Assembly (NCBI GenBank): GCA_037481835.1
Contig: JBBFKW010000009.1
Span: forward strand, 147,886-178,049
Length of the DNA stretch: 30,164 bases
From: Desulfosoma sp.
GTDB lineage: Bacteria; Desulfobacterota; Syntrophobacteria; Syntrophobacterales; DSM-9756
Direction of reading: 5' to 3'
In this document: piece by piece, positions 2-28,473 of the stretch
How positions within the stretch are numbered: the stretch's first letter is position 1
How the letters are laid out: every line of letters begins with the position of its first letter
Made by a program: the position numbers and the translations under genes
Notes under the pieces: model-generated
What the model was told of the DNA's origin: nothing
Databases searched by the model: none
The model's input: only the letters and a program-made list of their open reading frames with translations

Positions 2-43
2 TTCATCGCCCTGGACGAAACCAAGAAATTCCTGGCCGGTTGA
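2..43 (+). CDS. Probable 3' end of a gene entering from outside the window (...FIALDETKKFLAG*)
   Basis: Frame 2 reads TTC ATC GCC CTG GAC GAA ACC AAG AAA TTC CTG GCC GGT TGA, with G/C-ending codons like the host genes. Too short to identify. Confidence 0.35.
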   Translation, partial: FIALDETKKFLAG

Positions 44-3396: not shown

Positions 3397-3425
3397 CTAT
3401 CCAACCTCCCCAACAATTGGTTCGT

Positions 3426-6279: not shown

Positions 6280-6307
6280 TTATCGGCAAGGGCGGGGAGG
6301 AACATTA
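6280..6307 (-). promoter_or_regulatory. Sigma28 (FliA) promoter of flagellin
   Basis: Minus strand TAATG-N15-GCCGATAA. The TAA of the -10 box is also the stop codon of the upstream GT4 gene. Confidence 0.85.
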
Positions 6308-7962: not shown

Positions 7963-7975
7963 GGTCAAGGCCCTT

Positions 7976-9616
7976 TTACGTCTTCTCGGAAAGATGAACC
8001 AAGTCCCCGCTCCATTGGTTCAGGCACGCGGCAAGGCGAGCGAGTTCCTTTTTTCCTTGGCGCTCAAGTAAATCGGCCAGGGCAAGGAAAGGGGGCAGAG
8101 ACGGTTCGCAGGGGTCCCCCAACGCGCCACAATCAATCGCCAAGGCAAGAGCCTCCTCAGCGGCTTTTCCGGCAGCGCGGTCATTTCGTTCCATGGCCAT
8201 CTGCGCAAACGCCAGGAGTACTGCCACCTTTAAACACCCTTTTTGCACAAGGTCTTTAAATGCTTCGTAAGCTTCCCCGTTTCGTCCACACTGCCAGTAC
8301 AAATTGGCGAGACGAATCCGGGCACTTTCCAAGCCGGGAGCGGTCTCAAGAGCCTTTTTCCAATGGGCCTCCGCCTGCCGTTTTTCTCCCCGAAGACGAC
8401 AGAGCTCACCCCATTGATCCCACGCCTCTGCGGCAAGAAATCCGTACTGAAGAGCCTCCTTGAAAGCCATTTCGGACAAGCTCGTCATCCCTGCTTCCGC
8501 AGCGCACATTCCCACCTGTTCCCAGGCTTCCCGACGGGCGACGGGATCCGGCAAGGCCTGGAGGCACGAGCGGGCGTCGCCAACACGGTCCAGAGCGAAG
8601 AGGCTACAGGCGATGCGTGCCGCCACATCCTGCGGACGCAATCGAGGTACCGGAATGGGCAGCGGGACCTGAAGGTCGGGGTCCACTTTCAGAAGAAAAC
8701 GGAGTGCCCACGCGTGGTTCCCGAGCCGTTGCCAGAGGGCTCCAATACGATAAAGCGTTACGGCATCCAGCCCGTCAAGGCATTGGACACGCGTAAGGCA
8801 CCTCCGAGCTTCCTCCAGATTGCCAAGCTGGATCCACTCGCCGGCCAGAACCAGGTGCGTATCCAGCCAGTAGGGCTTCAGCCTCGCCCATTGGTTCTGA
8901 TCCCCGCGGAATCGCACTCTGTCCAGTTGCTCCACGACCTTGGACATGTGGGCGATGGCAAGATCCCCCCTGCCCAAACGACTATACGAAATGGCCAGAT
9001 AGTAATGAAGGGTCGGATCGTTTCGGGACGACTCCCTTTCGCGTTGAAGCAACCGAATGTTTCTCAGCTCTTTTCGGGCCACGACGTCCGGGTCGTTGTA
9101 GCCATGGTGCGTCAAGACAATGTTCGTATTGACCAGATGCACATGGTCAGCCAAAGCATCCCAGTCGATGGCCTCGTGTATTCTTCCCTGAAATCTTATG
9201 TTTTTGCGGTTGGGGAAACAGCGCACCTGGAAAAGCGAGCAATTGATCTGCCCCTCGCGAATGTCTCTGAGCTCAAAGGCAAAAGCGCGAAGCCCATCAA
9301 AGTGTTTTTTGAGCTCGCGGATCTTGTGGGCGTTTTCTCCATCCACCCGATCATCCGCATCCCACCATAGACAGTAGGAACACGTGGCTTTGTCCAAAGA
9401 AAAATTTCGAGCCGCGGCAAAATCATCGTGCCATGCATAGTGAAAGACTTGAGGGGTAAAAGAGCGAGCCAAGTCGGGCGTTCCGTCCGTTGAGCCCGTA
9501 TCCACAACGACGATTTCATCGGCGAACCCCTGCACCGATGAGAGAGCCTCTTGGATATTGGCCGCCTCATCTTTCACGATCATGCAGACAGATAACTTTC
9601 CGGCCTTTGCCCTCAT
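7976..9616 (-). CDS. Glycosyltransferase family 2 with C-terminal TPR repeats
   Basis: LSVCMIVKDE, DEIVVVDTGSTDGT, W.DDFAAARN, DADD (DxD), F.GRIHE, H.GY, followed by helical TPR-like repeats. Confidence 0.92.
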   Translation of the reverse strand: MRAKAGKLSVCMIVKDEAANIQEALSSVQGFADEIVVVDTGSTDGTPDLARSFTPQVFHYAWHDDFAAARNFSLDKATCSYCLWWDADDRVDGENAHKIRELKKHFDGLRAFAFELRDIREGQINCSLFQVRCFPNRKNIRFQGRIHEAIDWDALADHVHLVNTNIVLTHHGYNDPDVVARKELRNIRLLQRERESSRNDPTLHYYLAISYSRLGRGDLAIAHMSKVVEQLDRVRFRGDQNQWARLKPYWLDTHLVLAGEWIQLGNLEEARRCLTRVQCLDGLDAVTLYRIGALWQRLGNHAWALRFLLKVDPDLQVPLPIPVPRLRPQDVAARIACSLFALDRVGDARSCLQALPDPVARREAWEQVGMCAAEAGMTSLSEMAFKEALQYGFLAAEAWDQWGELCRLRGEKRQAEAHWKKALETAPGLESARIRLANLYWQCGRNGEAYEAFKDLVQKGCLKVAVLLAFAQMAMERNDRAAGKAAEEALALAIDCGALGDPCEPSLPPFLALADLLERQGKKELARLAACLNQWSGDLVHLSEKT

Positions 9617-9712
9617 GGGGGATGACTCCGTGGCCTATCCAATGCGATCTAAAACCAGTGCACCATCGCCAGGAACAGACAGGGCAGACCTATTCGGTTT
9701 TTCAGGGTACTT

Positions 9713-11332
9713 TCAACCAGGATGCCCCTCCACAGTCCTGAGAAGAGAAACAGCCTCCGGTTTTCTGCCCAGTCTGGCGTAGACGGCAGCCAAACGGCGC
9801 CTGATTTCCCGGTTGGCGGGGTCTTTCTCGGCCATGCGGGACAACACCCGGGCGGCTTCCTCAAACCGTTCCGTCTTGATACAGCACACGGCCAGGGCAT
9901 CCAAGACCAGGGCGGGACAATCCTCGGATTGCTCCGCAATAAAATTCAAGACAGTCATCAGTTGGGGAAGCCAGCCTTCCTTGAAACATCGTTCCACCAA
10001 AAGGGGAAAAATGCTCCGGGCATCCGGATTTCGGAAAAACTCAACTCCCGCTTCTCGCAGAACAAAAGCAGCCTCTTGAAGGGATCCCAAACGCACCAGA
10101 GCATAGACCCAAGGAGGTCCCACCGACGACCACGATGCTCCCTCCGCCTTAGCCTCCCCGAGATGACGCGCCGCCGCAACAGGATCCCCCAATTGGAGCG
10201 TACACAGGCCCAAGAGAGCCAGCCCCACAGCATCACGCGACTTCATCCGCAGGAAGCGTTGGAGGAACTGGTAGGCCAAGGTGTGGTTTCCCGTTTCGTA
10301 AGCGCTCCGACCCACAAGCCACAAAAGTTCGGGCTCCGAATAGTACTCCTCAGAACTCAAGTCGCTTCGTCGCATTTCCAAAGGTAGCCTTTGGAATTGA
10401 TAAGCGGCAAGCAGAAACGGCAGGGCTTCTGAATATTTTTGTTGATGATATAGGGATAGCCCCAGAAACAATTTACCAGTGTGCTGATTGGGAGTCACCT
10501 TGAGGGAGGATCGAGCATACTCTTCAGCCTTTTTGTAGTTTTTCCTGTAAAGATGGTGGTACGAGAGCAGATTGAAAACAAGGGATCGAAGATTGTCCGT
10601 CGGGGGATCTAGAGCATGGGCTTTTTCAAGGTATTCCAGGCTTCCATCATGCTCACCCCTTACCAGCAAGGTGACTCCCATGTAGTAGTGCGCAAAAGAA
10701 TCCTCCGGATGCTCCCGGACGTACGCCTTCAACAGACCCAGATTGCGCTCAATTTTCTCTTGAAGCCGCTCTTCGCTGACGGCGTACCCCCAATGGCGAA
10801 TCGCCACGGGAGCCCGATCCAAAGGCATTCCCATGCGGAGGAGGGAGTTAGAGACACCCTCATGGACTCTTCCTTCGAAACGAACCCCTTGGCATTTTTT
10901 AAAAAAGCGAACGGCCCAGTGATAAGATGGGCTGCCCTGGAGCTTGACGTTTTCGATGGGAATGAGGTAGGCCGCAGCATCGGCGCACGCCGCCAACTGC
11001 CGCAAGGTCACCCCTTCTGGCGATGGCAGGAGCTCCTCGTCGGCATCCAACCACAGGACCCAATCCCCCGTGGCGTGCTGGACAGACACGTTCCTGGCCG
11101 CCGAGAAGTCATTATTCCATTGAAACTCCAGCACCTTGGCCCCATATAGAGCCGCTATATCCCTCGTCCGATCTTGCGAACCGGTGTCGACCACAATGAT
11201 CTCATCCACCTGGTCTCGGACGCTGTCCAGGCAGCGGGGCAGATTCGCCTCTTCGTTTCGCACAATCATGCAAAGGGATATGGTCACATCCTTCGATGGG
11301 GTCATTTGCAAGACAGGCTCCGTTGTCGTCAT
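9713..11332 (-). CDS. Glycosyltransferase family 2 with C-terminal TPR repeats
   Basis: ISLCMIVRNEE, DEIIVVDTGS.D.T, W.NDFSAARN, WLDADE, FEGRVHE, IRHWGY, KIERNL.LL, followed by TPR repeats. Confidence 0.93.
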   Translation of the reverse strand: MTTTEPVLQMTPSKDVTISLCMIVRNEEANLPRCLDSVRDQVDEIIVVDTGSQDRTRDIAALYGAKVLEFQWNNDFSAARNVSVQHATGDWVLWLDADEELLPSPEGVTLRQLAACADAAAYLIPIENVKLQGSPSYHWAVRFFKKCQGVRFEGRVHEGVSNSLLRMGMPLDRAPVAIRHWGYAVSEERLQEKIERNLGLLKAYVREHPEDSFAHYYMGVTLLVRGEHDGSLEYLEKAHALDPPTDNLRSLVFNLLSYHHLYRKNYKKAEEYARSSLKVTPNQHTGKLFLGLSLYHQQKYSEALPFLLAAYQFQRLPLEMRRSDLSSEEYYSEPELLWLVGRSAYETGNHTLAYQFLQRFLRMKSRDAVGLALLGLCTLQLGDPVAAARHLGEAKAEGASWSSVGPPWVYALVRLGSLQEAAFVLREAGVEFFRNPDARSIFPLLVERCFKEGWLPQLMTVLNFIAEQSEDCPALVLDALAVCCIKTERFEEAARVLSRMAEKDPANREIRRRLAAVYARLGRKPEAVSLLRTVEGHPG

Positions 11333-11335
11333 CCC

Positions 11336-12370
11336 TCAAGCGGGTCCCTGCCGTTCCAGGCCGCCACGAGCTCTCTCGAGGGCCTTCAGGATTTCGGCCG
11401 ATTGCCCGTCCAGGGCGCGGCCCTGCTCCAACACCTCCACGGCCTCTTCAAAGGAACCCAGTTGCATGTAGAGCTGCCCAAGGCGCAAATACCCTTCGGG
11501 ATGCTCCGGCCGGATGCGCAGAGCCCGAGCGTAGGCTTCCCCAGCCCCCTGCAGGTCGCCGCAGCGGGACAGCTCCTCTCCCATCTGCAAATACACGTCG
11601 GCCGCCTTGCCATCCAGCCCGTCGGGGCGCCATGCCTGTCCTAGCCGCCAGATCACATCCCGGTACTCCGACCATACCGCGGTGTCTTGCGGATGTTCGG
11701 ATAGGTACAGTTCCAACAGCTGGGAGGCGGTCTCATGATGTTCCGCTGCGCTGAGGGCCCGGGCGCAATTGAGAACGATTTCTCCGTCCCGCGGAGCTCG
11801 ATCCAAAGCCTGACTGAAGTATTCCAAAGCCTTGAGGAGATCCCCTTCCTTCCAGCATAGCACGCCCAGATCGTTATAGGCTTGGGCGTTTTGCGGATTT
11901 CTCCCGACAGCGATCTCAAAACAGATCCGGGCTTGATGGAAACGCCCCTTTTGGAATTCCTCCTCCCCGACACGAACCAGGATGGCGGCAATGTCCGCCT
12001 CTCCGTCATTTTTCTGACACTCCTTAAAAACACCTTCTTGGCGAGCCGGCAGACGGTCGAGCCATTCCTGAAGCTGGGGATCAGCCGGCGCGCGTTCCAT
12101 GCACGCTTGAAGGATGTCGCGCGCATCCTTTTCCCGGCCGCATTCCACAAAAACGCTCACACAGTGGCGGATCGTGTCGCGGTCATCGGGATCCAATTGG
12201 AGCGCCTTTTCCAGGGCATCCAGGGCCTCCCGGATCCGCCCTTTTTTCCACAGTGCGTAGCCCCACCGGCTCCATGCCCCGGCATCGTAGGGATGCTGGG
12301 CCAGATATTCTTCCATGGTCTGCCCATCCACATCCTCGGACCCAACCGCCAAAAATCTGCCACCATTCAT
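11336..12370 (-). CDS. Tetratricopeptide repeat protein (344 aa)
   Basis: Repeated TPR units (ALDALEKALQLDPDD, AYNDLGVLCW..G....ALEYF.QAL...P, AY.RAL.I.P..PEGY.RLG.LY). ATG at 12370 behind GGAGG. Confidence 0.88.
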   Translation of the reverse strand: MNGGRFLAVGSEDVDGQTMEEYLAQHPYDAGAWSRWGYALWKKGRIREALDALEKALQLDPDDRDTIRHCVSVFVECGREKDARDILQACMERAPADPQLQEWLDRLPARQEGVFKECQKNDGEADIAAILVRVGEEEFQKGRFHQARICFEIAVGRNPQNAQAYNDLGVLCWKEGDLLKALEYFSQALDRAPRDGEIVLNCARALSAAEHHETASQLLELYLSEHPQDTAVWSEYRDVIWRLGQAWRPDGLDGKAADVYLQMGEELSRCGDLQGAGEAYARALRIRPEHPEGYLRLGQLYMQLGSFEEAVEVLEQGRALDGQSAEILKALERARGGLERQGPA

Positions 12371-12498
12371 GATAGCCTCCAAACTTGCGCTGACTGTGTG
12401 CACGCCCAACATCTTACTCAGTGGCCGAAAAGGGGATGCCCCCGAATTGGGAATCTCTTTCTCCGTTCGCTCCCTTGGGCATCGCCTGCCAGGGAGGA

Positions 12499-12514
12499 AG
12501 CAAACCTCATGCCC
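12499..12514 (-). promoter_or_regulatory. Sigma54 (-24/-12) promoter for the TPR-GT2-GT2-GT4 operon
   Basis: Minus strand GGGCAT-GAGGT-TTGCT, GG-N10-GC spacing, close to the TGGCAC-N5-TTGC consensus. Confidence 0.65.
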
Positions 12515-12733
12515 ATACGGCCATGGGAAGTGCCGAAGGTTTCCGGACAAAATCCAACGTGCCGGATCATCCGCGGTTTACCGAAAAGGCAAAGCCACGG
12601 TTCGGGCATGTTTCCTCTCAACCGGATGGCCCGGCCAATTCCTTGACCATTCCGACAAGGTTTGCTAGATAGGACGATGGATTCATTTGCAACATCCCTT
12701 GCAAGACAACGCCAACTATCGACTTACCACATG

Positions 12734-12749
12734 TGGTATGATCCTTGCT
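12734..12749 (+). promoter_or_regulatory. Sigma54 (-24/-12) promoter for the sugar biosynthesis cluster
   Basis: TGGTAT-GATCC-TTGCT, GG-N10-GC spacing, about 80 nt upstream of the rfbF ATG. Confidence 0.65.
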
Positions 12750-12826
12750 CAAAGCCGATGTAACCGAGTTGCCGGAGGTCTGAACAGGGGCCTTGTCATC
12801 CCCAAACACTCGATGTGGGACGAACC

Positions 12827-13603
12827 ATGAAAGTCGTGATCCTGTGTGGAGGACTGGGGACACGGTTGCGCGAAGAAACCGAGTTTCGCCCCAAACCCAT
12901 GGTCTACATCGGCAACCGCCCCATCTTGTGGCACATCATGAAGATCTATGCCCATTATGGGTACAGAGAATTTATATTGTGCCTGGGATACAAGGGCGAA
13001 ATGATCAAGGAGTATTTCTATAACTACGAACTCCTTAACAGCGATTTTACCATAGAATACGGCAACTCCAAACGGATCGAAATACACAGCGAAGTGGCGG
13101 AGAAGGGATGGAAAATCACGCTGGCCGACACCGGCGATAAATCCCTTAAGGGTGCCCGCCTCAAGATGATCGAAAAATATGTTGATGAAGACACCTTCAT
13201 GGTGACCTATGGAGACGGTGTGGCAGATATCGACATCCGTGCGCTGCTGGATTTCCATAATAAGCACGGACGGATGGCCACCGTCACAGGAGTCAAGCCC
13301 GTTTCCCGCTTTGGAGAACTCAAGGTCAAAGGCCATCTGGTCACCCGATTCATGGAAAAACCGGAAATCAGCTCGGCCCGCATCAGTGGGGGGTTCTTCG
13401 TTTTCAACAGAGCCATCTTTGATCATCTCAGGATCGACGACCCCATGGACCTGGAAGTGGGCACCTTAGACAAGATCGCCCAGATGGGGGAACTCATGGT
13501 TTACAATCACCCCGGTTTTTGGGCCTGTATGGATACCCTCAGGGACGTGGAATACCTGAACTCCTTGTGGCAGACTGGGAAGGCGCAATGGAAGGTGTGG
13601 TGA
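12827..13603 (+). CDS. rfbF: Glucose-1-phosphate cytidylyltransferase (RfbF/DdhA)
   Basis: MKVVILCGGLGTRLREETE.RPKPMV.IG.RPILWHIMK.Y, TYGDGV.D, GFW.CMDTLRD, A.WKVW. Confidence 0.96.
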   Translation: MKVVILCGGLGTRLREETEFRPKPMVYIGNRPILWHIMKIYAHYGYREFILCLGYKGEMIKEYFYNYELLNSDFTIEYGNSKRIEIHSEVAEKGWKITLADTGDKSLKGARLKMIEKYVDEDTFMVTYGDGVADIDIRALLDFHNKHGRMATVTGVKPVSRFGELKVKGHLVTRFMEKPEISSARISGGFFVFNRAIFDHLRIDDPMDLEVGTLDKIAQMGELMVYNHPGFWACMDTLRDVEYLNSLWQTGKAQWKVW

Positions 13604-13609
13604 CTCACC

Positions 13610-14668
13610 ATGCGTGGCGCCCTTCAAGATTTCTATTCCGGTCGGAGGGTTTTCCTCACCGGCCATACAGGCTTTAAAGGTTCGTGGCTTTCCTTATATT
13701 TGAACTCCCTGGGATGCAAGGTCGTTGGGTATGCACTGCCCCCTCCAACAGACCCGAGCCTGTTCCAAGTCGCTGACATCTCAAGGAAGGTCACCTCCTT
13801 TACGGGAGACATCCTGGATTTTACCAACCTCCTGGCAGCGTTTTCTCGGCATCACCCGGAAATTGTCTTTCACATGGCCGCCCAATCCCTCGTCCGATGC
13901 TCCTATAGTATCCCCTTGGAAACCCTTGCCACCAACGTGATGGGAACCGCTCACGTGCTGGAGGCCGCCAGGAAGACCGATTCTGTGCGGGTAGTGATCA
14001 TCGTGACCAGCGACAAATGCTATGAAAACGAAAACTGGGTGTGGGGATATCGGGAGAACGACCCTTTAGGCGGACACGACCCCTACAGTGCGAGCAAGGC
14101 CTGTGCCGAACTTATCACAAGGGCCTACACGCGATCCTTCTTCCAGGACTCGACCAAAGCGGTCTCCTCCGTGCGGGCCGGTAACGTCCTCGGGGGAGGC
14201 GATTGGGCCCAGGACCGCCTTGTCCCTGACTGCGTCAGATTCTTGACAAGCCGCAAGCCCATCGTCCTTCGCAACCCCCAAGCCGTCCGCCCCTGGCAGC
14301 ATGTCTTGGACGCCCTGACCGGATATCTGCTGCTGGCTCACAAGATGTATGAATCTCCCCACCAGTACTCAGGGGCATGGAATTTTGGACCGGGCGATGA
14401 CGCCATTTTGACGGTTCGAGAGGTGGCGGTAAGCATCACGGAGCATTGGGGCGAGGGATCTGTGGAAATTCTCCCGGATCCGGCCCTGCACGAGATGGGT
14501 ACTCTCAAGTTGGACAGTTCCAAGGCGAGGACGCTCTTGGGATGGCGTCCTCGATGGAGCATTCAGAAGACCATTGCCAAAACCGTGGAATGGTACAAGG
14601 CCCATGCGGCCGGCGAGGCCATGGAGATGGTGTGCCGGAACCAGATAAGAGAGTATCTGGAAGTATGA
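13610..14668 (+). CDS. rfbG: CDP-glucose 4,6-dehydratase (RfbG/DdhB)
   Basis: [59 protein letters not shown]. Confidence 0.96.
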
Positions 14669-15999
14669 CCTTCGTGAATATGTGGAACGAAGGGCAACGT
14701 ATGCGCGGAGAAATCGAGCAGCACGTCCGCGCCTATTTTCAAACGGCCTTCGCACCTTCCCCCTTTATTCCCGGCGAAACCCCCATTCCCGCCTCGGGCA
14801 AGGTGTTCGACGCCGAGGAGATGGTCCACCTGGTGGACGCGGCGTTGGAGTTCTGGCTGACAACGGGACGTTTTGCCGCCTCCTTTGAAAAAGAACTGGC
14901 TCAATTCGTGGGCAGCGACCACGCCCTATTGGTCAATTCCGGATCTTCCGCAAACCTTTTGGCCATCAGCGCTCTGATGTCCCCTCAACTGGGCGAAAGG
15001 AGGCTGCAGCCCGGAGATGAGGTCATCACGGTAGCCGCCGGGTTCCCCACCACGGTGAATCCCATCGTCCAGAACAATCTGGTACCCGTTTTTGTGGACA
15101 TTTCCATCCCCACGTACAACGCGGATGCCGCTCTTTTGGAAAAAGCCCTCTCCCCCAAGACAAAAGCCGTCATTTTGGCGCACACCCTCGGCAACCCCTT
15201 TGATCTCGCCCTCGTGACGGAATTCTGCTCCACACATGGGCTTTGGCTCATCGAAGACTGTTGTGATGCCTTGGGATCCACCTACAAGGGGCGCAGGGTG
15301 GGCACTTTTGGAGACATGGCTACTTTCAGTTTTTATCCAGCCCATCATATCACCACGGGGGAAGGAGGGGCTGTGCTGACCAACAACTCCATGCTCAAAT
15401 CCATTGTGCGATCCTTGCGGGACTGGGGCAGGGATTGCTGGTGCGAGACGGGCACGGATAACAGCTGCAAGCGCCGGTTCCAGTGGAAGTTTGACGGCCT
15501 CCCGGAAGGATACGATCACAAGTATGTTTATTCCCACATCGGTTACAACCTCAAGGCCACCGATCTCCAGGCGGCGGTGGGTGTTGCCCAGATGAAAAAG
15601 CTGCCGACGTTTGTGCAATCACGAAAACGAAATTTCCACTTCCTTTATCAGGCCCTGGAAGCGTTCCAAGATTGGCTGGTCCTTCCCAAAGCCACCCCCG
15701 GCTCAGACCCCGCATGGTTCGGATTTCCCATGACCATCCGCTCCAACGCCCCATTTTCCCGCAATGATCTGGTTCAATTTCTCGAATCAAAAAAGATCGG
15801 CACGAGGCTGCTCTTTGCCGGCAATTTGCTGCGCCAACCCGCCTATCGCCATGTCCCCGTGCGGGTGGTGGAACCCTTGACAGTCACTGACACCGTGATG
15901 GAACGGACCTTGTGGGTCGGCACCTTTCCCGGGCTGACGGAACCCATGCTTCACTTTGTTGCGAACCAAATCGGCACCTTTATCGCCGAAAGGACCTGA
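14665..15999 (+). CDS. rfbH: CDP-4-keto-6-deoxy-D-glucose 3-dehydrase (RfbH/DdhC, E1)
   Basis: [24 protein letters not shown] (His in place of the aminotransferase Lys), Cys motif RDWGRDCWC......[24 protein letters not shown] at 14665 overlaps the rfbG stop; alternative start 14701. Confidence 0.95.
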
Positions 16000-16010
16000 A
16001 AGGGAGCCCC

Positions 16011-17513
16011 ATGAACCCTTTTGAACGCCCACTCTTCATTTTCGAAATGGCTAACAACCATATGGGAAGTGTCCGGCACGGGCTTCGCTTGATTCAAGCT
16101 TTCGCCCAAATCGCCGCGCGTTATCCATTTCGATTTGCCTTCAAGTTCCAGTTTCGTCACTTGGAAACATTTTTTCACCCGGACTATCGGGATCGGCTGG
16201 ACATCCCCTATGTGAAGCGTTTCCGCGAGACTCGCCTCAGTCGCGAAGAGTTCCAACAACTGAAAGAATGCGCCGAAGATCATATGTTCATGACCATCTG
16301 TACGCCTTTTGATGAGCCGTCGGTGGATCTAATCGAAGAAATGGACTTCGACGTCATCAAGATCGCCAGTTGCTCCTTCACGGACTGGCCCCTTCTGGAA
16401 AGAATCGTCGTCGCGGCTAAGCCCATCATCGCATCGACAGCCGGCGCGAGTGTCGATGACATGGATAAGGTGGTGAGTTTCTTCCAGCACCGCCAAAAGA
16501 TTTTCGCTCTCATGCATTGCGTGGGGGAATACCCCACAGGCGCCGACCACCTGCAACTCAACCAGATCGATCTCCTGCGACACCGCTATCCCGACCTGCC
16601 CATCGGCTATTCCACCCATGAGGAACCTGATAACGTTGAGGCAATCCAGATAGCCATAGCCAAGGGCGCCACCCTTTTTGAAAAGCATGTGGCCCTGGAG
16701 GCTGAAGGTTTTCCCAAAAACGCCTATTCGGCCACACCCCTCCAGGCGGACCGTTGGCTTGCGTCCGCGCAGCGGGCTTTCGCCATGTGCGGGGTGGCGG
16801 GGAGAAGGTCCGACCCTAGCGCCAAAGAATTGGCCGACTTGCGTCAATTCAAGCGGGGCGTCTTTGCCGCCAGAAAGATCGCTCAGGGAGAGAGGATCCA
16901 CGCAGGCAACGTCTTTCTCGCCTTTCCCAACACCGACCAACAGTTGGTGGCCAACGATCTATCCAAATACACGGTCTTCATCGCCCGCCGAGACCTGGAA
17001 GAGAAAGCGCCCATAAAGCATACCGACGTCTACCGGGAAGACAAAAGAGAGAAGATCTATTCCATCGTACAACAGGTCAAGCAGATGCTCGCCCAAGCCA
17101 ACGTGGTGGTTCCCGGCATGGCCCAATTGGAAATTTCCCACCATTACGGGCTCGATAAATTTGACCACATCGGCTCCACAATCATCAATGTCATCAATAG
17201 AGAATACTGCAAAAAATACATCGTGCTCTTTCCGGGCCAGAGTCATCCGGAACAGTATCATAAGATCAAGGAAGAGACGTTTGTGGTTCTCCACGGCGAT
17301 GTGACGCTTTCTCTTGACGGACGGAAAAAGAAGTGCTCACGCGGAGATATTGTCACCATAACCCGTGGCACGAGACACGACTTTCATTCGGAGGCTGGAG
17401 CCATCATAGAAGAAATATCGTCCGCACACTTTGCCGAAGACTCCTACTACACCGATGAGACCATCAACGCCAACCCGGAACGAAAGACCCTCTTGACCCA
17501 TTGGATGTCCTGA
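16011..17513 (+). CDS. N-acetylneuraminate synthase family protein (NeuB + SAF) fused to a C-terminal D-lyxose-isomerase-like cupin
   Basis: EMANNHMG, KFQ, TPFD..SVD, KIAS, HCV..YP, IGYS.HE, EKH in the NeuB domain. C-terminal YCKK.IVLFPGQ.HPEQYH..KEETF.VL.G...H.F cupin. RBS GGGAG. Confidence 0.88.
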   Translation: MNPFERPLFIFEMANNHMGSVRHGLRLIQAFAQIAARYPFRFAFKFQFRHLETFFHPDYRDRLDIPYVKRFRETRLSREEFQQLKECAEDHMFMTICTPFDEPSVDLIEEMDFDVIKIASCSFTDWPLLERIVVAAKPIIASTAGASVDDMDKVVSFFQHRQKIFALMHCVGEYPTGADHLQLNQIDLLRHRYPDLPIGYSTHEEPDNVEAIQIAIAKGATLFEKHVALEAEGFPKNAYSATPLQADRWLASAQRAFAMCGVAGRRSDPSAKELADLRQFKRGVFAARKIAQGERIHAGNVFLAFPNTDQQLVANDLSKYTVFIARRDLEEKAPIKHTDVYREDKREKIYSIVQQVKQMLAQANVVVPGMAQLEISHHYGLDKFDHIGSTIINVINREYCKKYIVLFPGQSHPEQYHKIKEETFVVLHGDVTLSLDGRKKKCSRGDIVTITRGTRHDFHSEAGAIIEEISSAHFAEDSYYTDETINANPERKTLLTHWMS

Positions 17514-17817
17514 CGGAGGCCCCTGTGCCGCTATACCCAACCCTCGTGTGGAACATTGATGACGGGTTCAATGGCCTTCCCCGAATGACGTTCCAACGCA
17601 CCTGGCTACTGAAACATCCCTCCAACCCACACAAAGGCAATGGCCCGGTGCGGCTTGAAAAGGCGGACGACTTCATGGACGACAGCCCCGCCCACTGCCA
17701 TCGGGCCACACAGATAGGGATTGGCGACTTTCTGGTGACTTCCCCATCGAGCCCCCAGAGCCTGCCTATGGAACATTTCCTGGTCGCTTTGGCGGAGTTT
17801 GCCACCACGAGGTTCTT

Positions 17818-19614
17818 GTGACCAAGCTATCCGACTATGTCATTCGGTTTTTAGAAGGCCTGGGAATCAGGCACGTATTCATGCTTGCCGGCGGTGGAGC
17901 CATGCATTTGGTGGACTCGCTGGGCAAAAGCTCCCAGATCACTCATGTATGCAACCTTCACGAGCAGGCATGCGCCATTGCCGCCGATGCATACGCCCAG
18001 TATACGGGAAAACTCGGAGTCGCCCTGGTAACCACCGGCCCCGGCGGGACCAACACGCTGACGGGCATCGCCGCCTCATGGCTGGATTCCATTCCCGTGC
18101 TCATCCTCTCCGGGCAGGTGAAACGTTCGGACAGGATAACGGGACGGGGTGTCCGCCAGATGGGTTTTCAGGAAATCGATATCGTGAGCCTGGTGAAGCC
18201 CATTACCAAATATGCCGTCACCGTCATGGAGCCGGAGACCATTCGGTATCATTTGGAAAAGGCGCTTCATGAGGCCACCACCGGGAGACCTGGCCCTGTG
18301 TGGATTGATATTCCTTTGGACGTTCAAGCCACCTCCGTCGAGGAAAACTCTCTGCAGGGCTTTGACGGCCCCCCAAAGGCTGTCGAGTGCCACGGACTCA
18401 AAGAGAAAGTCCGACAGGCCCTTGAGCTCCTCAATGGCTCCGAACGCCCGATCATCTTGGCGGGGAATGGCATCCGGTTGGCCGGCGCCCTGGACCTGTT
18501 TCATAAGATGATCAATCGCCTGACCATACCCGTGCTGACCACTTGGAAGGCCGCCGATTTCCTGCCTGAAGACCACCCCCTGTATGTGGGGCGCCCGGGA
18601 GCTGTGGGGCAGCGCGGAGCCAACTTCTCGCAGCAGAATGCCGATTGGATTCTCTGCATCGGGGCCCGATTGGACTTGGGCCAAACGGCTTATAACCATC
18701 AGAACTTCGCCCCGAGGGCTCGCAAGATCATGGTGGATGTGGATCCGGCGGAAATCGAAAAAATGCAGACCCCCATCCAGGTGCCCATTGCTTGTGACGC
18801 GGGAGATTTTCTCCGTGAATTCATCCGGCAACACTCCCAGACGGCACCCAAGGACTATTCCCAGTGGCTGCAGCAGTGCAAAGGGTGGCACCAGAAATAT
18901 CCGGTGGTGCTTCCCGAATACTGGAAAGAAGAAGATTATGTGAACGATTACGTTCTCATCAGCGTCCTTTCCGACGAGTTGACGGGGCAGGACCTCGTCG
19001 TTCCGGGAAGTTCGGGTGCCTGCAGCGAGCGGACCATGCAGGCCATTCGGATTACGGCAGGGTTGAGGGTCTTTAACAGTCAGGGACTGGGCTCCATGGG
19101 TTTCGGCGTCCCGGCGGCCATCGGAGGGTGCCTCGCGAGCGGAGGCAGAAGAACGATCTGCATCGAAGGAGACGGCGGGTTCATGATGAACATCCAGGAG
19201 CTGGAAACGGTCCGGCGCCTGCAGCTTCCCATCAAGTTCTTCGTCCTGAACAACGGTGGGTACGGATCCATCATGGCCACGCAAAAGAGCCACTTTGCCG
19301 GCCACTATGTGGGATGCACCCCAGCCAGCGGCCTCACCCTTCCCGACATTCCATCGGTTGCCGAAAGTTTCGGAATCCCAACGGATCGCATCTTGAATCA
19401 TTCCACAATTCGAGAAAAGGTTCGACACGTTTTGCAGTCCAAAGGACCGGTGGTCTGTGAAGTGAGGGTTTACCAGGACCAACCGACGGTGCCTCGAGTG
19501 GTCAGCACCCAGAAGGAAGACGGCTCCATCGTGTCCTCGCCCATGGAGGACATGTGGCCTTTTTTGGAAAGGCATGAATTCCATAACAATATGGGTAACA
19601 GGCCGCGTTCGTAA
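17818..19614 (+). CDS. Thiamine diphosphate-dependent acetolactate synthase-like enzyme (YerE-like sugar C-branching enzyme)
   Basis: GGGAMHL.DS, HEQAC..AA..YA, VTTGPGGTN, GFQE.DI, ThDP motif GDGG-X24-NN. Sugar-cluster context and no ilvH small subunit nearby. Confidence 0.88.
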   Translation: MTKLSDYVIRFLEGLGIRHVFMLAGGGAMHLVDSLGKSSQITHVCNLHEQACAIAADAYAQYTGKLGVALVTTGPGGTNTLTGIAASWLDSIPVLILSGQVKRSDRITGRGVRQMGFQEIDIVSLVKPITKYAVTVMEPETIRYHLEKALHEATTGRPGPVWIDIPLDVQATSVEENSLQGFDGPPKAVECHGLKEKVRQALELLNGSERPIILAGNGIRLAGALDLFHKMINRLTIPVLTTWKAADFLPEDHPLYVGRPGAVGQRGANFSQQNADWILCIGARLDLGQTAYNHQNFAPRARKIMVDVDPAEIEKMQTPIQVPIACDAGDFLREFIRQHSQTAPKDYSQWLQQCKGWHQKYPVVLPEYWKEEDYVNDYVLISVLSDELTGQDLVVPGSSGACSERTMQAIRITAGLRVFNSQGLGSMGFGVPAAIGGCLASGGRRTICIEGDGGFMMNIQELETVRRLQLPIKFFVLNNGGYGSIMATQKSHFAGHYVGCTPASGLTLPDIPSVAESFGIPTDRILNHSTIREKVRHVLQSKGPVVCEVRVYQDQPTVPRVVSTQKEDGSIVSSPMEDMWPFLERHEFHNNMGNRPRS

Positions 19615-19659
19615 GAACAGCCAATCAGCCCGCATCACCCATTGAGAGGCTCCGAGGGG

Positions 19660-20772
19660 ATGTTCGTAAGCGTCATTGTCCCATTCTTCAATGCGGAAAA
19701 ATTTCTTGACGATTCCATCGGGAGCGTGTTGGAACAGACCTACACGGATATTGAACTTATCCTTGTCGATGACGGCTCCACCGATGGAAGCCTTGCTCTC
19801 TGCAGAAAATACGGCGCCCGTGATTCCAGGATTCGCATTATCGCACAACCCAACCAAGGCCCCGCCAGTGCCAGAAACACGGGGGTCCGGATGGCCAGAG
19901 GAGATCTGGTCTTCTTTTTGGATGCCGACGATCTTCTTCGCCCCCAAGCACTAGAAAAGCTGCTCTTCGCTTGCAAAGAACACCAACCCGACTTGGTCTT
20001 GAGCAATTTCTGTAAGCTCATGCCCAACGGAAAATTCGCCGACCAGAAGGTTACGCTCGCGCCGGGAAGCCCCCCTTGCCAATCTGCCCAGGAAGTATTG
20101 GGCCCATACCAGATCCGCCAGTTTGTTAGGCACTTTCTCCATTCTCCCAGCAATCACCTCATCAGCTATTGCTGGGCTAGACTCTACAAGGCATGCGTCA
20201 TTCGCCAACATCGCATCATAGCCAATGAAGATATGCGCCTTTTCGAAGATTTTGTCTTTAACTTGGATTATATCAAGAATATAAAATCACTTTTCCTAAT
20301 CAATGAACCCCTTTATGTGTATAGAATGCATGACCATCACATTTCCTTGAGCATGTCCATGCTGAATGCCCCTCGTTTGATACGAGACATGGAGATTTTC
20401 CGCAAGGCGGCGAACGATTTTCTCACCACCTATGCGGTAGGAGACGGGCTGGAAACCAACCCGGAGCAAGAGATCGGGCATGCTTTGACCCATTATGCGA
20501 TTATTTTCCTGGTGCGCTCCTGTAGGCTCCTGGCACCCGAAACGCTGAAGTTCCTCTATCGTCAGGTTGGGATCCTGCTTAAGGCCCCCATCATGCAATG
20601 GAGCCTCAGGGGCTATAGGCCTCGGCAAGGCAACAGCCGCCTGCTGCCGTTATTCATAAACCATCAGTGGATCCTGCCGACGCTGATTCTGAGCATGGTC
20701 AAGGGCTATGCAAGGTACGGGAAACCATCGTCCGGATTGCGACAAGGCAGAAAAGGAGCCCCCCATCCATGA
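19660..20772 (+). CDS. Glycosyltransferase family 2
   Basis: VSVIVP.FNAEKFL, ELILVDDGSTD.S, N.G...ARN.G, FLDADD, ED..FN. ATG at 19660 behind GAGGGG. Confidence 0.93.
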   Translation: MFVSVIVPFFNAEKFLDDSIGSVLEQTYTDIELILVDDGSTDGSLALCRKYGARDSRIRIIAQPNQGPASARNTGVRMARGDLVFFLDADDLLRPQALEKLLFACKEHQPDLVLSNFCKLMPNGKFADQKVTLAPGSPPCQSAQEVLGPYQIRQFVRHFLHSPSNHLISYCWARLYKACVIRQHRIIANEDMRLFEDFVFNLDYIKNIKSLFLINEPLYVYRMHDHHISLSMSMLNAPRLIRDMEIFRKAANDFLTTYAVGDGLETNPEQEIGHALTHYAIIFLVRSCRLLAPETLKFLYRQVGILLKAPIMQWSLRGYRPRQGNSRLLPLFINHQWILPTLILSMVKGYARYGKPSSGLRQGRKGAPHP

Positions 20773-21998
20773 TCCCCCCGGAACATGACTCGGCTGGCAT
20801 ACGGCAACAAGACCCTCGCCCCTTGCTCATTTACGGTGCCGGGGTGGTGGGGAAGGTGCTGTATCAGCTCTGTGAGGCACTCGGGCTCACGGTGGAAGCT
20901 TTCTGTGACGGCAGCACGGCTCGGGCAAACACGACCTTTTGTGATCGCCCGGTCATCCACGCCTCGGATCTACCGCACCATTATCAAGATGCCCGCTTCC
21001 TCATCTCTGTGGCCTCCATTAAAGACGTGGTGGATAAGCTCCACGAGCTGGGCTACCGCACATGGAAAGCCGGAGGCCCTCTGCTCAAGCAATACCGTAC
21101 CTCCCCCTCTCCTCAGGGAAGCTCTTTCAACTACGTAGATTTTGCCGTCGAGACCTGCATATGGTGCCATGATGCCTATCTTGCCGGCAGCGGTCTATTC
21201 ATCCGAAGTGTGGACGTGGTCATCACGGAACGGTGCTCTCTAAGGTGCAAGGACTGCTCAAACCTGATGCAATATTATGAAAACCCTCGGGATTGCGACT
21301 GGGATAAGCTCATGGCATCCATCGGTCGGTTCTGCGACCTGGTGGACGATGTCTTGGAATTTCGGGTGATCGGCGGTGAGGCTTTCATGAACAAACGATG
21401 GCCCCAAGTGGTTGGTCATCTTGTATCCCAGCCCAAAGCCAAAAGGGTTGTGCTGTACACCAATGGAACCATACTTCCGCCAAAAAATGGATTGGAAGCC
21501 TTGAAACACCCCAAAGTGCTGGTGATCATCTCCAATTACGGGAAGATTTCAAGAAAGTTGCTTCCCCTGAAAAAGGCCCTTGAAGATATGGGCATCAAGC
21601 ACTACATCCTGAACATTGATTCCTGGCTGGATTGTGCGCGCATTGAGCCTCACCATCGCCCCTCCCCGGAAAACAAGCGCCTTTTTGCCGATTGCTGCGC
21701 GAAGAACATGTTGACCCTCTCCGACGGCCGGCTTCACCGTTGTCCTTTCTCCGCCAATGCCTTCCGGCTGGGAGCCATCCCCGATTTCCCAACGGATTAT
21801 GTGGATCTGTTTGAAGCCCCTTTGAGTGAGGCACGTGAAAATCTTCGAAAAGAAATCTGGAACTACCTTCATAAGAAGGAATTTCTTCACACGTGTGACT
21901 TCTGCAACGGACGCCCTTTGGCCGGGCCAGAAGTCCTTCCTGCCGTTCAAATTGGAAAGCCTTTGCCCTACCGCAAGTACGAAATGTCCGCTTCATAA
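20769..21998 (+). CDS. Radical SAM protein with an N-terminal small Rossmann-like module and C-terminal Cys cluster
   Basis: CSLRCKDC (CX3CX2C), GGEA, YTNGT. C-terminal CC...DG....CP and C.FC. ATG at 20769 overlaps the GT2 stop. Confidence 0.88.
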   Translation: MIPPEHDSAGIRQQDPRPLLIYGAGVVGKVLYQLCEALGLTVEAFCDGSTARANTTFCDRPVIHASDLPHHYQDARFLISVASIKDVVDKLHELGYRTWKAGGPLLKQYRTSPSPQGSSFNYVDFAVETCIWCHDAYLAGSGLFIRSVDVVITERCSLRCKDCSNLMQYYENPRDCDWDKLMASIGRFCDLVDDVLEFRVIGGEAFMNKRWPQVVGHLVSQPKAKRVVLYTNGTILPPKNGLEALKHPKVLVIISNYGKISRKLLPLKKALEDMGIKHYILNIDSWLDCARIEPHHRPSPENKRLFADCCAKNMLTLSDGRLHRCPFSANAFRLGAIPDFPTDYVDLFEAPLSEARENLRKEIWNYLHKKEFLHTCDFCNGRPLAGPEVLPAVQIGKPLPYRKYEMSAS

Positions 21999-22025
21999 AT
22001 GATCCCAAACACAGGGGGATAGGCC

Positions 22026-23126
22026 TTGTCTCAATCTTATAATAGGAAAGAAGAAGAAGCCCAAAAAAGGAACAGGCTTCAGCGGGAAAAACCCTATGTG
22101 TACTCCAAGATCATGAAGTTTGATGACAAACTGAGAAAAGGCGAGAGCGTCGCCATCATTCAGTTTCAGTATAACTACGTCTGCAATCTGCGATGTCAGC
22201 ACTGTTCCATCAAACGCTTTCAAGGGCCCAGCTCCAAACGATCCTTCACCCCGGAGGATGTGAGGAGCCTTTCGAGGCAAGCGGATGCCTTGGGCTTGGC
22301 CCGTTTCGTCATTACCGGTGGAGAACCCTTGGTCTTCAAGGATTTGGACGAATTGGTGGCAGCCATTGATCCGCAAAAGTTCTACATTAATTGCGATACC
22401 AACGGGTGGCTTCTCGATGACGAGAAAGCGAGACATCTTCGGAACATAGGCGTCGACAGGATCCAATTGAGCCTGGACAGTCTGGACCCCGACGAACACG
22501 ACCGGTTTCGAGGCGTTAAAGGATCCCATACCCGAGCCATGCGGGCGGTGGAAGCCGCCCTAAAGGCGGGTTTGGCCATATTTGTGCAGACAGTCGTCAC
22601 AAAAGAAAGACTGCATTCCGAAGAATTCATCCAATTCGTGCGTTTTTTCAATCAAATGGGAATCGGCGTCTTTGTCACTTACGCCAAACCCGTTGGCGCC
22701 TGGGAAGGCAACTACGACGTTCTGGTCACCCAGCAAGACATGGAATATATGCGCCAACTGGAGCGCCGCTACAATGTATTCACCCACTTAACACCCGCCT
22801 ACGGTTTGAATTTGGGATGCATTGCCGTTAAGGGTATGGTTTCCGTAACCCAGTACGGCGATGTTCTACCTTGTCCCTACATTCATGTTTCCATCGGCAA
22901 TGTTTTTTACGAGCCTCTGAAGGACATACTGAAAAGAGGACTGAGCATAAAATACTTCGGAGAACATGTGAGCACTTGTCTCATTGCTGAGGACAGACAG
23001 TTCATCCAGAAATATATCGCTCAGAAGGTTTACGGTCGATCTCTACCGGTACCCTGTGACGAAGTTTTCACGGAAGAAGACCGAACTCAAAAGCCTTTCA
23101 ACCAATCCCCAGAGGTGTTTCTGTGA
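22026..23126 (+). CDS. Radical SAM protein with SPASM/twitch-like C-terminal domain
   Basis: CNLRCQHC, TGGEPL, DTNG, SLDS....HD.FRG..GS, GC.A......V...GDV.PCPY....GN. TTG start. Confidence 0.92.
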   Translation: MSQSYNRKEEEAQKRNRLQREKPYVYSKIMKFDDKLRKGESVAIIQFQYNYVCNLRCQHCSIKRFQGPSSKRSFTPEDVRSLSRQADALGLARFVITGGEPLVFKDLDELVAAIDPQKFYINCDTNGWLLDDEKARHLRNIGVDRIQLSLDSLDPDEHDRFRGVKGSHTRAMRAVEAALKAGLAIFVQTVVTKERLHSEEFIQFVRFFNQMGIGVFVTYAKPVGAWEGNYDVLVTQQDMEYMRQLERRYNVFTHLTPAYGLNLGCIAVKGMVSVTQYGDVLPCPYIHVSIGNVFYEPLKDILKRGLSIKYFGEHVSTCLIAEDRQFIQKYIAQKVYGRSLPVPCDEVFTEEDRTQKPFNQSPEVFL

Positions 23127-23659
23127 GAAGAGAGAAGGCCAAGATACCCGCTTCGAGCATGGAAGACGCCATAAAGGTTTTGGACGCGTCCATTCCCAAC
23201 CCTACTCAAGGATTGCCCGATCCCGTCTTTTACTTCGTCAGCCGATTGACCCCATTGGTCAACGTGGACCTCCTCATCAAGGATGAAAAGGGCCGGACGC
23301 TTCTGGCCATGCGAAATGATCCCTATGCGGGAAAGGGCTGGCACGTGCCTGGGGGGATCGTGCGCTTCAAAGAGACTCTGGAAGCGAGAATCCAAGAAGT
23401 CGCCCGCACGGAGATCGGGGTACCCGTACATTGGGAGCCGAAACCCGCTGTTGTTCACCAGCTCATTCATGAGAAAAGGGATGTGAGAGGCCATTTCATT
23501 TCTTTGCTCTACAAGTGTTTTTTGCCCAGCCACTTCGTTCCTTCCAACAAGGGCTTGACAATGGACGACGCCGGGTATCTCATGTGGCATGAAAGATGTC
23601 CGGACAATCTCATCGTCTATCATGAAATTTATAGAGGCTATATCGACGAGCGAGCGTAG
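23123..23659 (+). CDS. NUDIX hydrolase, GDP-mannose mannosyl hydrolase-like
   Basis: TPLVNVDLLI....G..LL..R...P..G.GWHVPGG.V...ETL.......A..EIG, the modified NUDIX box of the Gmm/WcaH type. Confidence 0.82.
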   Translation: MRREKAKIPASSMEDAIKVLDASIPNPTQGLPDPVFYFVSRLTPLVNVDLLIKDEKGRTLLAMRNDPYAGKGWHVPGGIVRFKETLEARIQEVARTEIGVPVHWEPKPAVVHQLIHEKRDVRGHFISLLYKCFLPSHFVPSNKGLTMDDAGYLMWHERCPDNLIVYHEIYRGYIDERA

Positions 23660-23662
23660 CCC

Positions 23663-28449: not shown

Positions 28450-28473
28450 GGGCTCAGATGAGAGGTTTGCACT

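Follow-up and report, generated by a model that had tools for sequence, protein, structure and literature searches.

A 30,164-nucleotide stretch of the genome of Desulfosoma sp. (GenBank assembly GCA_037481835.1, contig JBBFKW010000009.1, positions 147,886 to 178,049; here, the window) carries a plus-strand operon in which a gene encoding a fusion of a NeuB (sialic acid synthase family) domain, an SAF/AFP-like domain, and a cupin domain lies close to the gene of a thiamine diphosphate (ThDP)-dependent enzyme, downstream of rfbF, rfbG, and rfbH. Judging from sequence comparison, this operon, which extends from position 12827 to at least position 30000, probably builds a CDP-activated 3,6-dideoxyhexose whose C4 bears a long polyhydroxylated side chain, with the NeuB-cupin protein as the maker of the side chain donor; we hold this view with moderate confidence. 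A more specific version seems to us possible, though somewhat short of probable: a C8 or C9 acid resembling Kdo or Kdn might, without CMP activation, act as the acyl donor of the ThDP enzyme and so give a C13 or C14 “sugar-on-sugar” CDP-dideoxyhexose that is remodeled by radical S-adenosylmethionine (SAM) enzymes and placed on flagellin.

A preliminary description of the same DNA had read the gene order as rfbF-rfbG-rfbH-[NeuB-SAF-cupin]-[ThDP enzyme], and this order is borne out by domain and equivalog matches, with all five genes in one plus-strand operon within a single densely packed gene array (12827 to 30000). The description had also claimed that the NeuB protein feeds a long 2-oxo acid donor to the ThDP enzyme. 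The linkage of the two genes, the lack of linked neuA and neuC genes, and the likeness of the ThDP enzyme to JanthE lend support to this claim. Twenty-nine open reading frames (ORFs) of the window were scanned for Pfam domains. The genome is an estimated 99.4% complete, and the window ends with its contig (C9, position 178049), so that the sequence past about position 30000 is unassembled.

Donor- and acceptor-forming enzymes of the operon

The fusion gene (16011 to 17513) encodes 500 amino acids. Its start codon is the ATG at 16011, which a GGAG-type ribosome-binding site precedes, and not a GTG at 15912. The protein matches Pfam NeuB (PF03102) at 140 bits (gathering threshold, 22.1) and Cupin_2 at 37.7 bits, with weak matches to SAF and Lyx_isomer. 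Its best database relatives (at least 120) are all about 500 residues long, combine NeuB with Cupin_2, and are 58 to 76% identical to it. The NeuB domain scores 135 bits against the sialic acid synthase model NeuB/NnaB (TIGR03569), which has a cutoff of 399.65, and 123 bits against the PseI model (TIGR03586), which has a cutoff of 340.25. The best solved relative of this part is PDB 3g8r (377 bits), while NmNeuB (PDB 1xuu) reaches 83 bits. The other PF03102 matches of the genome are two 3-deoxy-D-arabino-heptulosonate 7-phosphate (DAHP) synthases.

The residues aligned to NmNeuB E25, K129, S132, S154, S213, H215, E234, and H236 are all retained. In NmNeuB, His215 and His236 bind the metal, phosphoenolpyruvate (PEP) is held by the Lys and Ser residues, and Arg314 contacts the acetamido group. 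R314 is replaced by Phe in the window protein, and further substitutions are E134 to Ser, N184 to Gly, and D247 to Asn. On that reading of the residue roles, the PEP and metal machinery of the domain would be intact, and its sugar pocket would be unlike that of a sialic acid synthase. A K-x-Q motif (K45 and Q47 in the window protein) aligns without a shift to the PDB 6ncs sialic acid synthase and is displaced in the alignment to NmNeuB.

Profile and fold both relate the cupin domain to D-lyxose isomerases. Its profile matches PDB 2y0o (E value, 6.8e-16) and 7nzo (E value, 4.2e-13), and the Foldseek top ten for its AlphaFold model (pLDDT, 93.5) are all D-lyxose/D-mannose isomerases, with TM-scores of 0.77/0.72 and a root mean square deviation (rmsd) of 1.8 Å for 2y0o. 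The motifs PGQ..PE..H, K.ETF, H.F, and E.SS are common to the domain and D-lyxose isomerases, and the match to Pfam Lyx_isomer (PF07385) falls just short, at 19.3 versus a gathering threshold of 20.8. Because of this likeness, a role as aldose supplier is the natural reading of the domain; the suggestion in the preliminary description that the cupin supplies the aldose thus gains support at the level of homology. An RmlC- or FdtA-type nucleotide-sugar epimerase/isomerase was ruled out, as no such structure is among the Foldseek matches listed.

The ThDP enzyme matches PF02776, PF00205, and PF02775 at 120 to 125 bits each and has a GDG ThDP-binding motif (EGDGGF). Its best solved relative is JanthE (PDB 8rph; 407 bits; E value, 7.6e-121; residues 3 to 588 aligned), and the best acetohydroxyacid synthase (AHAS) reaches 277.6 bits. 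JanthE is regarded as YerE-like by its authors and has a broad 2-oxo acid donor range, with its physiological substrates unassigned (PMC12188165). The window enzyme is not a housekeeping IlvB: it scores 408 bits against the acetolactate synthase large-subunit equivalog, under the cutoff of 538, and the IlvB-like paralog of the genome, which is 35% identical to it, lies outside the clade of cassette-linked enzymes in a quick IQ-TREE phylogeny. This tree holds no characterized member, the sequences of YerE, ErwE, MMAR_2332, and MyGE having been left out. An antisense frame at 18076 to 19947 (minus strand, 623 codons), which is longer than the ThDP gene that it overlaps, was rejected as a composition artifact; the same artifact misled ORF picking in one related locus (L081).

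The NeuB-cupin protein is the only candidate carbon-carbon lyase encoded next to the ThDP gene. Pfam detected no HpcH/HpaI- or BphI-type pyruvate aldolase in the window, and the only above-cutoff HpcH_HpaI gene of the genome lies on contig C15. For the acceptor, three enzymes of the CDP-3,6-dideoxyhexose pathway score above their equivalog cutoffs: RfbF at 344.5 bits versus 300 (TIGR02623), RfbG at 481 versus 278 (TIGR02622), and RfbH at 719 versus 423 (NF011936).

Linkage of the fusion and ThDP genes across genomes

At least 572 relatives of the NeuB-cupin protein exist in a one-genome-per-species collection. The best 80 loci, picked by NeuB-cupin similarity alone, were taken with up to 10 kb of flanking sequence; their hosts belong to many phyla, among them Thermodesulfobacteriota, Nitrospirota, Pseudomonadota, Chlorobiota, Cyanobacteriota, Bacteroidota, Patescibacteria, and Omnitrophota, and to archaea. 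ORF clustering places a ThDP homologue in 74 of the 80 loci and tblastn of the window proteins (at least 50% query coverage) does so in 68, and several of the loci without one are contigs of 2 to 3 kb or contigs that stop right past the fusion gene. By the same tblastn search, RfbG is found in 60, RfbH in 57, and RfbF in 56 loci. The ThDP gene directly follows the fusion gene in 34 loci, with stop and start codons mostly overlapping or nearly abutting; in 26 further loci, read by eye, a haloacid dehalogenase (HAD)-like ORF of 190 to 230 residues stands between the two. The linkage is thus conserved in other genomes, the two genes being neighbors in about 60 of the 80 loci, mostly together with rfbFGH. 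Because it recurs in most of a set of loci that were chosen by NeuB-cupin similarity, this linkage is not a matter of chance.

The accessory genes are less constant. Radical SAM protein 2 is the most frequent (34 loci), followed by the NUDIX hydrolase (33) and radical SAM protein 3 (13); radical SAM protein 1 and the GT2 glycosyltransferase co-occur in 10 or 11 loci, and the epimerase-fold protein is found in 5. Split transketolase-like genes (Transketolase_N plus pyrimidine-binding/C-terminal domains) occur in four loci (L004, L039, L051, and L057), the first of which also has an E1_dh component; they may supply a sugar precursor.

A reverse search from the ThDP enzyme (E value of 1e-100 or better) in 400 other genomes of the phylum gave 18 ThDP loci from 17 genomes, with none from the one genome of the same genus or the two of the same family. 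One locus (L098) is a record already among the 80 loci, so that the two samples overlap. Where the ThDP enzyme is at least 57% identical to that of the window, a NeuB-cupin gene is adjacent in five of five loci; one more such pair is seen at 39% identity. Among the other phylum loci, three have a canonical NeuB without a cupin (L103, L113, and L114; 225 to 265 bits to PF03102), two have HpcH/HpaI aldolases, one has an ErwJ-type acetaldehyde dehydrogenase, and two have an Epimerase_2 gene and a CBS protein gene (L108 and L110); in four, none of these partners lies within 1.5 kb. An aldolase and a NeuB protein occur together in none of the 18 loci, as expected of alternative donor suppliers. With 17 positive genomes of 400, and none of the same genus or family among those sampled, the cassette is patchy and island-like in its distribution.

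In the window, the 304-base gap between the fusion and ThDP genes (17514 to 17817) is an internally deleted HAD-like phosphatase gene. The remnant keeps profile positions 2 to 30 and 136 to 192 of 194 in one open frame of 120 amino acids, positions 31 to 135 being gone. The invariant nucleophile D8 has become N, the near-invariant PWN has become PSS, and the motif II Thr and the motif III Lys are absent, so that HAD motifs I to IV are not intact in this copy. An ORF at 17501 to 17821, which could be mistaken for a genuine gene of 106 amino acids, was ruled out as a product of this deletion, and the genome holds no second copy of the HAD-like gene. In the alignment of the intact family, DxDD..N and DD motifs are accompanied by one invariant Thr and one invariant Lys, and the Foldseek matches of its structural model (pLDDT, 95.7) are nearly all HAD phosphatases, e.g., the deoxyribonucleotidase-like 3bwv and 6g2l. 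The intact ORF has no Pfam or NCBIfam match, and its profile finds weak PDB matches (E values of about 0.4), mostly to HAD proteins.

This HAD-fold ORF without a Pfam match is present in 31 of the 80 loci (30 between the fusion and ThDP genes, with L025 added by tblastn), and a Pfam HAD_2 gene takes its place in 16 others; no locus has both. The two types track two large subfamilies of the ThDP tree, of which the one with HAD_2 or neither is mostly from Pseudomonadota. The seven loci nearest to that of the window in the ThDP tree all have an intact HAD-like gene, indicating that the loss is recent and specific to this genome.

Proposed pathway and competing explanations

In the pathway that we propose, RfbF, RfbG, and RfbH would form CDP-4-keto-3,6-dideoxy-D-glucose, as their equivalog-level homology suggests. 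In the donor branch, the cupin domain would turn a ketose into an aldose, and the NeuB domain would join PEP to this aldose, a pentose giving a C8 and a hexose a C9 3-deoxy-4-hydroxy-2-ulosonic acid; in relatives, the HAD phosphatase would act on a ketose phosphate or ulosonate phosphate of this branch. By analogy with ErwE, MMAR_2332, and MyGE, the ThDP enzyme would then decarboxylate the ulosonic acid and transfer the acyl carbanion onto the C4 ketone. Gene context suggests the later steps: the 1′-ketone may be reduced by one of two short-chain dehydrogenase (SDR)-fold proteins in a YerF-like role, four radical SAM enzymes may tailor the sugar, and GT2, GT4, and TPR glycosyltransferases may load it onto flagellin. 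The NeuB-cupin protein would, on this analogy, take the place of the pyruvate aldolase of the published routes to erwiniose, caryophyllose, and gastriose.

Several observations weigh against this proposal. (i) The label “YerE-like” comes from JanthE; PDB 5ahk, which we take to be PpYerE, the YerE homologue of Pseudomonas protegens, is no closer to the window enzyme (264.7 bits) than a true AHAS is. Moreover, JanthE accepts pyruvate too (PMC12188165), and the window enzyme could therefore merely add an acetyl branch. (ii) In the cupin domain, the first His of the HxH metal motif of lyxose isomerase is Gln (QxH). (iii) The pairwise identities of the proteins carry no pair-specific signal, with Spearman coefficients of 0.51 for NeuB-cupin and ThDP enzyme, 0.55 for ThDP enzyme and RfbF, and 0.38 for NeuB-cupin and RfbH. 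(iv) A PseF/KdsB-like cytidylyltransferase is encoded within 10 kb of the fusion gene in two loci (L054 and L056), with a weak third case in L069, so that some loci of the family may make a CMP-activated ulosonic acid. (v) An E3 reductase (RfbI/AscD/DdhD) is missing from the operon: Pfam detected no Fer2, FAD_binding_6, or NAD_binding_1 protein in the window and no E3 among the Pfam-scanned neighbor ORFs of the related loci, and the four FAD_binding_6 genes of the genome are all on other contigs. With no linked E3 and with a remnant in place of the HAD gene, the pathway may be impaired or reliant on unlinked genes; the phosphatase step in particular may be covered by an unlinked enzyme, or its loss may have impaired the pathway. 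An NAD_binding_1 fragment lies upstream in one locus of the phylum sample (L106).

An alternative, which we consider unlikely, is that two separate sugars are made. The NeuB-cupin protein would produce a Kdn- or Kdo-like acid that is CMP activated by KdsB or an unlinked enzyme, the ThDP enzyme would use pyruvate to add a yersiniose-type acetyl branch, and the adjacency of the genes would reflect a shared glycan. The use of pyruvate by JanthE would agree with this, as would the presence of KdsB in the genome, the CTP_transf_3-like genes near two or three of the 80 fusion genes, and the HAD genes that accompany the fusion; in Bacteroides, a Kdn-9-phosphate synthase is reportedly paired with an HAD phosphatase. 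Linked activation genes are nevertheless rare. Pfam detected neither CTP_transf_3 (NeuA-type) nor Epimerase_2 (NeuC-type) domains in the window ORFs. The preliminary description had allowed for a neuA/neuC pair just beyond the window, and none exists in the assembly: the sole CTP_transf_3 gene of the genome, and its only CMP-ulosonate synthetase, is kdsB on another contig (239 bits to the equivalog versus a cutoff of 155), and its one Epimerase_2 gene, on contig C1, is unlinked to the window. Among the neighbors of the fusion genes, of which 28 cluster representatives and 140 further ORFs (L004 to L030) were scanned with Pfam, neither CTP_transf_3 nor a pyruvate aldolase was detected. These 140 ORFs belong to a set of 334 unannotated neighbor ORFs, the other 194 of which were screened by phmmer with KdsB on six-frame translations; in this search, a single-sequence one and hence less sensitive than Pfam, 77 of the 80 loci have no such cytidylyltransferase within 10 kb.

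The two-sugar explanation also sits poorly with the tight order NeuB-cupin-(HAD)-ThDP, which about 60 of the 80 loci from different phyla retain and in which the stop codon of one gene often overlaps the start codon of the next, and with the alternation of aldolases and NeuB proteins beside YerE-like genes. Furthermore, the glycosyltransferases of the window are all of the GT2 or GT4 type by Pfam, with none of the sialyltransferase type.

Quite improbable is a reversed order of events, in which the ThDP enzyme branches the CDP-sugar, the NUDIX hydrolase frees it, and the NeuB domain condenses it with PEP to a branched ulosonic acid of at least 11 carbons, in the manner of PseG/PseI and LegG/LegI. 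In the pathways to pseudaminic and legionaminic acids, the sugar is as a rule freed from its nucleotide ahead of the NeuB reaction, and the window and 33 of the 80 loci have a Gmm-like NUDIX gene. However, such a product would have to be CMP activated, and no gene for this step is linked; the NUDIX gene is absent in 47 of the 80 loci, whereas the NeuB-cupin/ThDP pair is nearly constant; and no role would be left for the lyxose isomerase-like domain or the HAD phosphatase. The linked HAD phosphatase suggests that the donor starts from a sugar phosphate of central metabolism and not from a CDP-derived sugar, and so fits the proposed long-chain donor pathway better than its rivals.

The least credible explanation is that the ThDP enzyme merely decarboxylates an ulosonic acid to a 2-deoxy-aldose or is a specialized acetolactate synthase paralog unconnected with the CDP-sugar: ThDP-dependent decarboxylases of 2-oxo acids are common and the enzyme reaches 408 bits against the acetolactate synthase model, but that score lies under the equivalog cutoff, the genome has a separate IlvB-like paralog, the nearest characterized relative is a ketone-accepting carboligase, and rfbFGH genes are linked in 56 to 60 of the 80 loci.

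Flagellar context and comparison with known systems

The features of the window are collected in Table 1. By gene context, flagellin is the likely glycan acceptor: on the minus strand, divergent from the operon, genes for a TPR protein, two GT2-TPR proteins, and a GT4 glycosyltransferase are followed by those for flagellin, FliD, and two FliS proteins, and 11 of the 80 other NeuB-cupin loci, among them those of Methylophaga sulfidovorans DSM 11578 (L072) and Pseudothauera nasutitermitis (L045), likewise have a flagellin gene next to the cassette. The G+C content is 54 to 60% in the flagellar part and 49 to 53% from about 20 kb onward. This drop and the absence of the cassette from the same-genus and same-family genomes searched would fit a glycosylation island gained by horizontal transfer.

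Table 1. Features of the operon and of the divergent flagellar genes in the window
Feature	Position	Strand	Basis
rfbF, glucose-1-phosphate cytidylyltransferase	12827..13603	+	TIGR02623 equivalog; ATG at 12827
rfbG, CDP-glucose 4,6-dehydratase	13610..14668	+	TIGR02622 equivalog
rfbH (E1), CDP-6-deoxy-4-keto-hexose 3-dehydrase	14680..15999	+	NF011936 equivalog; in-frame ATG at 14680
NeuB (TIM-barrel) and SAF/AFP-like part of fusion, PEP-dependent 3-deoxy-2-ulosonic acid synthase homologue	16011..17045	+	PF03102
Cupin domain of fusion, D-lyxose/D-mannose isomerase-like (putative aldose-ketose isomerase)	17046..17513	+	Profile and fold
HAD-superfamily phosphatase gene remnant, internal deletion	17540..17797	+	Profile alignment
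ThDP-dependent carboligase, YerE-like (putative), 598 amino acids	17818..19614	+	Three TPP_enzyme domains
GT2 glycosyltransferase	19642..20772	+	PF00535, 130 bits
Radical SAM protein 1, NeuD-like N-terminal stretch	20667..21998	+	Domain scan
Radical SAM/SPASM protein 2	22026..23126	+	PF04055, 98 bits
NUDIX hydrolase, GDP-mannose mannosyl hydrolase-like	23123..23659	+	PF00293; NF011963, 41 bits, under cutoff
Radical SAM/SPASM protein 3	23663..24682	+	Domain scan
Divergent epimerase/dehydratase-fold protein, candidate side-chain ketoreductase	24672..25688	+	Weak PF01370, 26 bits
Double GT2 glycosyltransferase	25688..27304	+	PF00535, 156 bits, two stretches
Short-chain dehydrogenase, second candidate ketoreductase	27301..28449	+	PF00106, 128 bits, residues 137-331; 130-amino-acid N-terminal extension
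Radical SAM protein 4	28474..30000	+	PF04055, 54.7 bits
Flagellin, 280 amino acids	5367..6209	-	Flagellin_N and Flagellin_C
GT4, two GT2-TPR proteins, TPR protein	6280..12550	-	Co-directional with flagellin, directly upstream

Four radical SAM enzymes within one sugar operon are unusual. In a Syntrophales metagenome-assembled genome (L025, 8441 to 18000), genes for radical SAM protein 2, the NUDIX hydrolase, radical SAM protein 3, the epimerase-like protein, the double GT2, the SDR, and radical SAM protein 4 follow each other in the identical order. The flagellar part of the window further holds an ORF with a HicA-family toxin domain (3 to 323, minus strand), an HEPN-domain ORF overlapping the start of fliW (1620 to 2051 and 2048 to 2473, plus strand), and the two FliS paralogs in tandem (2956 to 3797, minus strand). 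A promoter and terminator scan of positions 12400 to 20000 gave one promoter-like and seven terminator-like sites; both counts are under the means of shuffled sequences, and the scan is thus uninformative.

The preliminary description had presented the route as a candidate new one. This stands for the putative donor-forming enzyme, a NeuB-cupin protein where no aldolase is present, and is overstated for the rest, as the scheme of donor and ThDP enzyme was published in 2022. Steitz et al. (PMC9306805) propose, and in part demonstrate, that a 4-hydroxy-2-oxo acid formed by a pyruvate aldolase is transferred to CDP-4-keto-3,6-dideoxyglucose by a YerE-like ThDP enzyme before a reductase finishes the sugar. 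Their scheme covers erwiniose, caryophyllose, and gastriose, with the enzyme sets ErwE/ErwI/ErwJ/ErwF, MMAR_2332/MMAR_2331, and MyGE/MygI/MygF, and ErwE, MMAR_2332, and MyGE accept C4 to C8 4-hydroxy-2-oxo acids (PMC9306805). A later review adds JanthE and cites an in silico survey of more than 200 YerE-like clusters by Krug et al. in 2024; the words “cupin” and “neuraminate” are absent from the review (PMC12247030).

In the full-text literature searched, whose coverage ends short of Krug 2024 and Lanza 2024, no paper joins three of the terms N-acetylneuraminate synthase, cupin, thiamine, and CDP-glucose 4,6-dehydratase. Searches for acyl-branched sugars, caryophyllose, aurantose, JanthE, YerE-like, and ErwE returned only papers of the Muller group as relevant, and the accessible part of a paper on the lipooligosaccharide (LOS) of M. 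kansasii holds nothing on NeuB or ThDP genes. Yersiniose-type sugars were found in the literature in O-antigen contexts only, with none linked to flagellin.

If the proposed pathway is correct, the sialic acid synthase family gains a second role, in making long keto-acid side chains for branched deoxysugars, and many proteins annotated as “N-acetylneuraminate synthase family protein” or “SpsE” would be mislabeled. Long-branched sugars, now represented by few lipopolysaccharide (LPS) or LOS structures, may then be common surface components, flagellin glycans included, given the at least 572 species genomes with the fusion. Should the donor indeed be a C8 or C9 acid, the flagellar glycan would belong to a class so far undescribed. 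Enzymes of the ThDP subfamily would also be candidates for the biocatalytic synthesis of chiral tertiary alcohols from polyhydroxylated donors, a current topic of enzyme engineering (PMC12188165 and PMC12247030).

The closest known systems are compared as follows. The domains of the fusion protein have separate counterparts. Like NeuB, PseI, and LegI, its N-terminal part combines Pfam NeuB with an SAF/AFP-like domain and keeps the residues at the metal and PEP ligand positions of NmNeuB; unlike them, it is fused to an isomerase domain, lacks a NeuA/NeuC partner, and has Phe at the position of R314. A member of the same NeuB subfamily is PDB 3g8r, titled “probable spore coat polysaccharide biosynthesis protein E” (SpsE), which reaches 485 bits against the family profile over the NeuB and SAF parts; it is a stand-alone protein of 350 amino acids, has no cupin, and could be used to model the sugar pocket of the fusion. 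The D-lyxose isomerases (Bacillus subtilis YdaE, 2y0o; Thermofilum, 7nzo; Escherichia coli Z5688, 3mpb) share the fold of the cupin domain (TM-scores of 0.74 to 0.77), while the window domain differs in being fused to NeuB and in having QxH for HxH. JanthE of Janthinobacterium sp. HH01 (PDB 8rph, 8rpi, and 8rpj) has a CDG ThDP motif in contrast to the GDG of the window enzyme.

At the level of gene sets, yersiniose A synthesis in Yersinia pseudotuberculosis (DdhA to DdhD, YerE, and YerF) resembles the window, by description, in its RfbF/G/H-type genes and in a carboligase of the ThDP flavoenzyme type that acts on the C4 ketone. It differs in that YerE takes pyruvate and does without a dedicated enzyme for donor formation, and in that the gene set encodes the E3 protein DdhD. 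The erwiniose, caryophyllose, and gastriose systems come closer: they share the route to the acceptor CDP-4-keto-3,6-dideoxyglucose, a YerE-like ThDP enzyme beside a carbon-carbon bond former potentially able to give a 3-deoxy-4-hydroxy-2-oxo acid, and a downstream candidate for an NAD(P)H reductase. For the reductase (YerF/ErwF type), the candidates in the window are the epimerase-fold protein (24672 to 25688) and the SDR (27301 to 28449), assigned independently of any comparison with the YerF sequence. Loci of this aldolase type exist in the phylum of Desulfosoma itself (L105, L109, and L115). The known systems use an HpcH/HpaI- or BphI-type pyruvate aldolase, whereas the window has a PEP-dependent NeuB-family synthase homologue fused to a putative sugar isomerase; unlike them, loci of the window type usually have an HAD phosphatase and are followed by genes for up to four radical SAM enzymes; and the erwiniose-type genes belong to an LPS or LOS context, in contrast to the flagellar context of the window.

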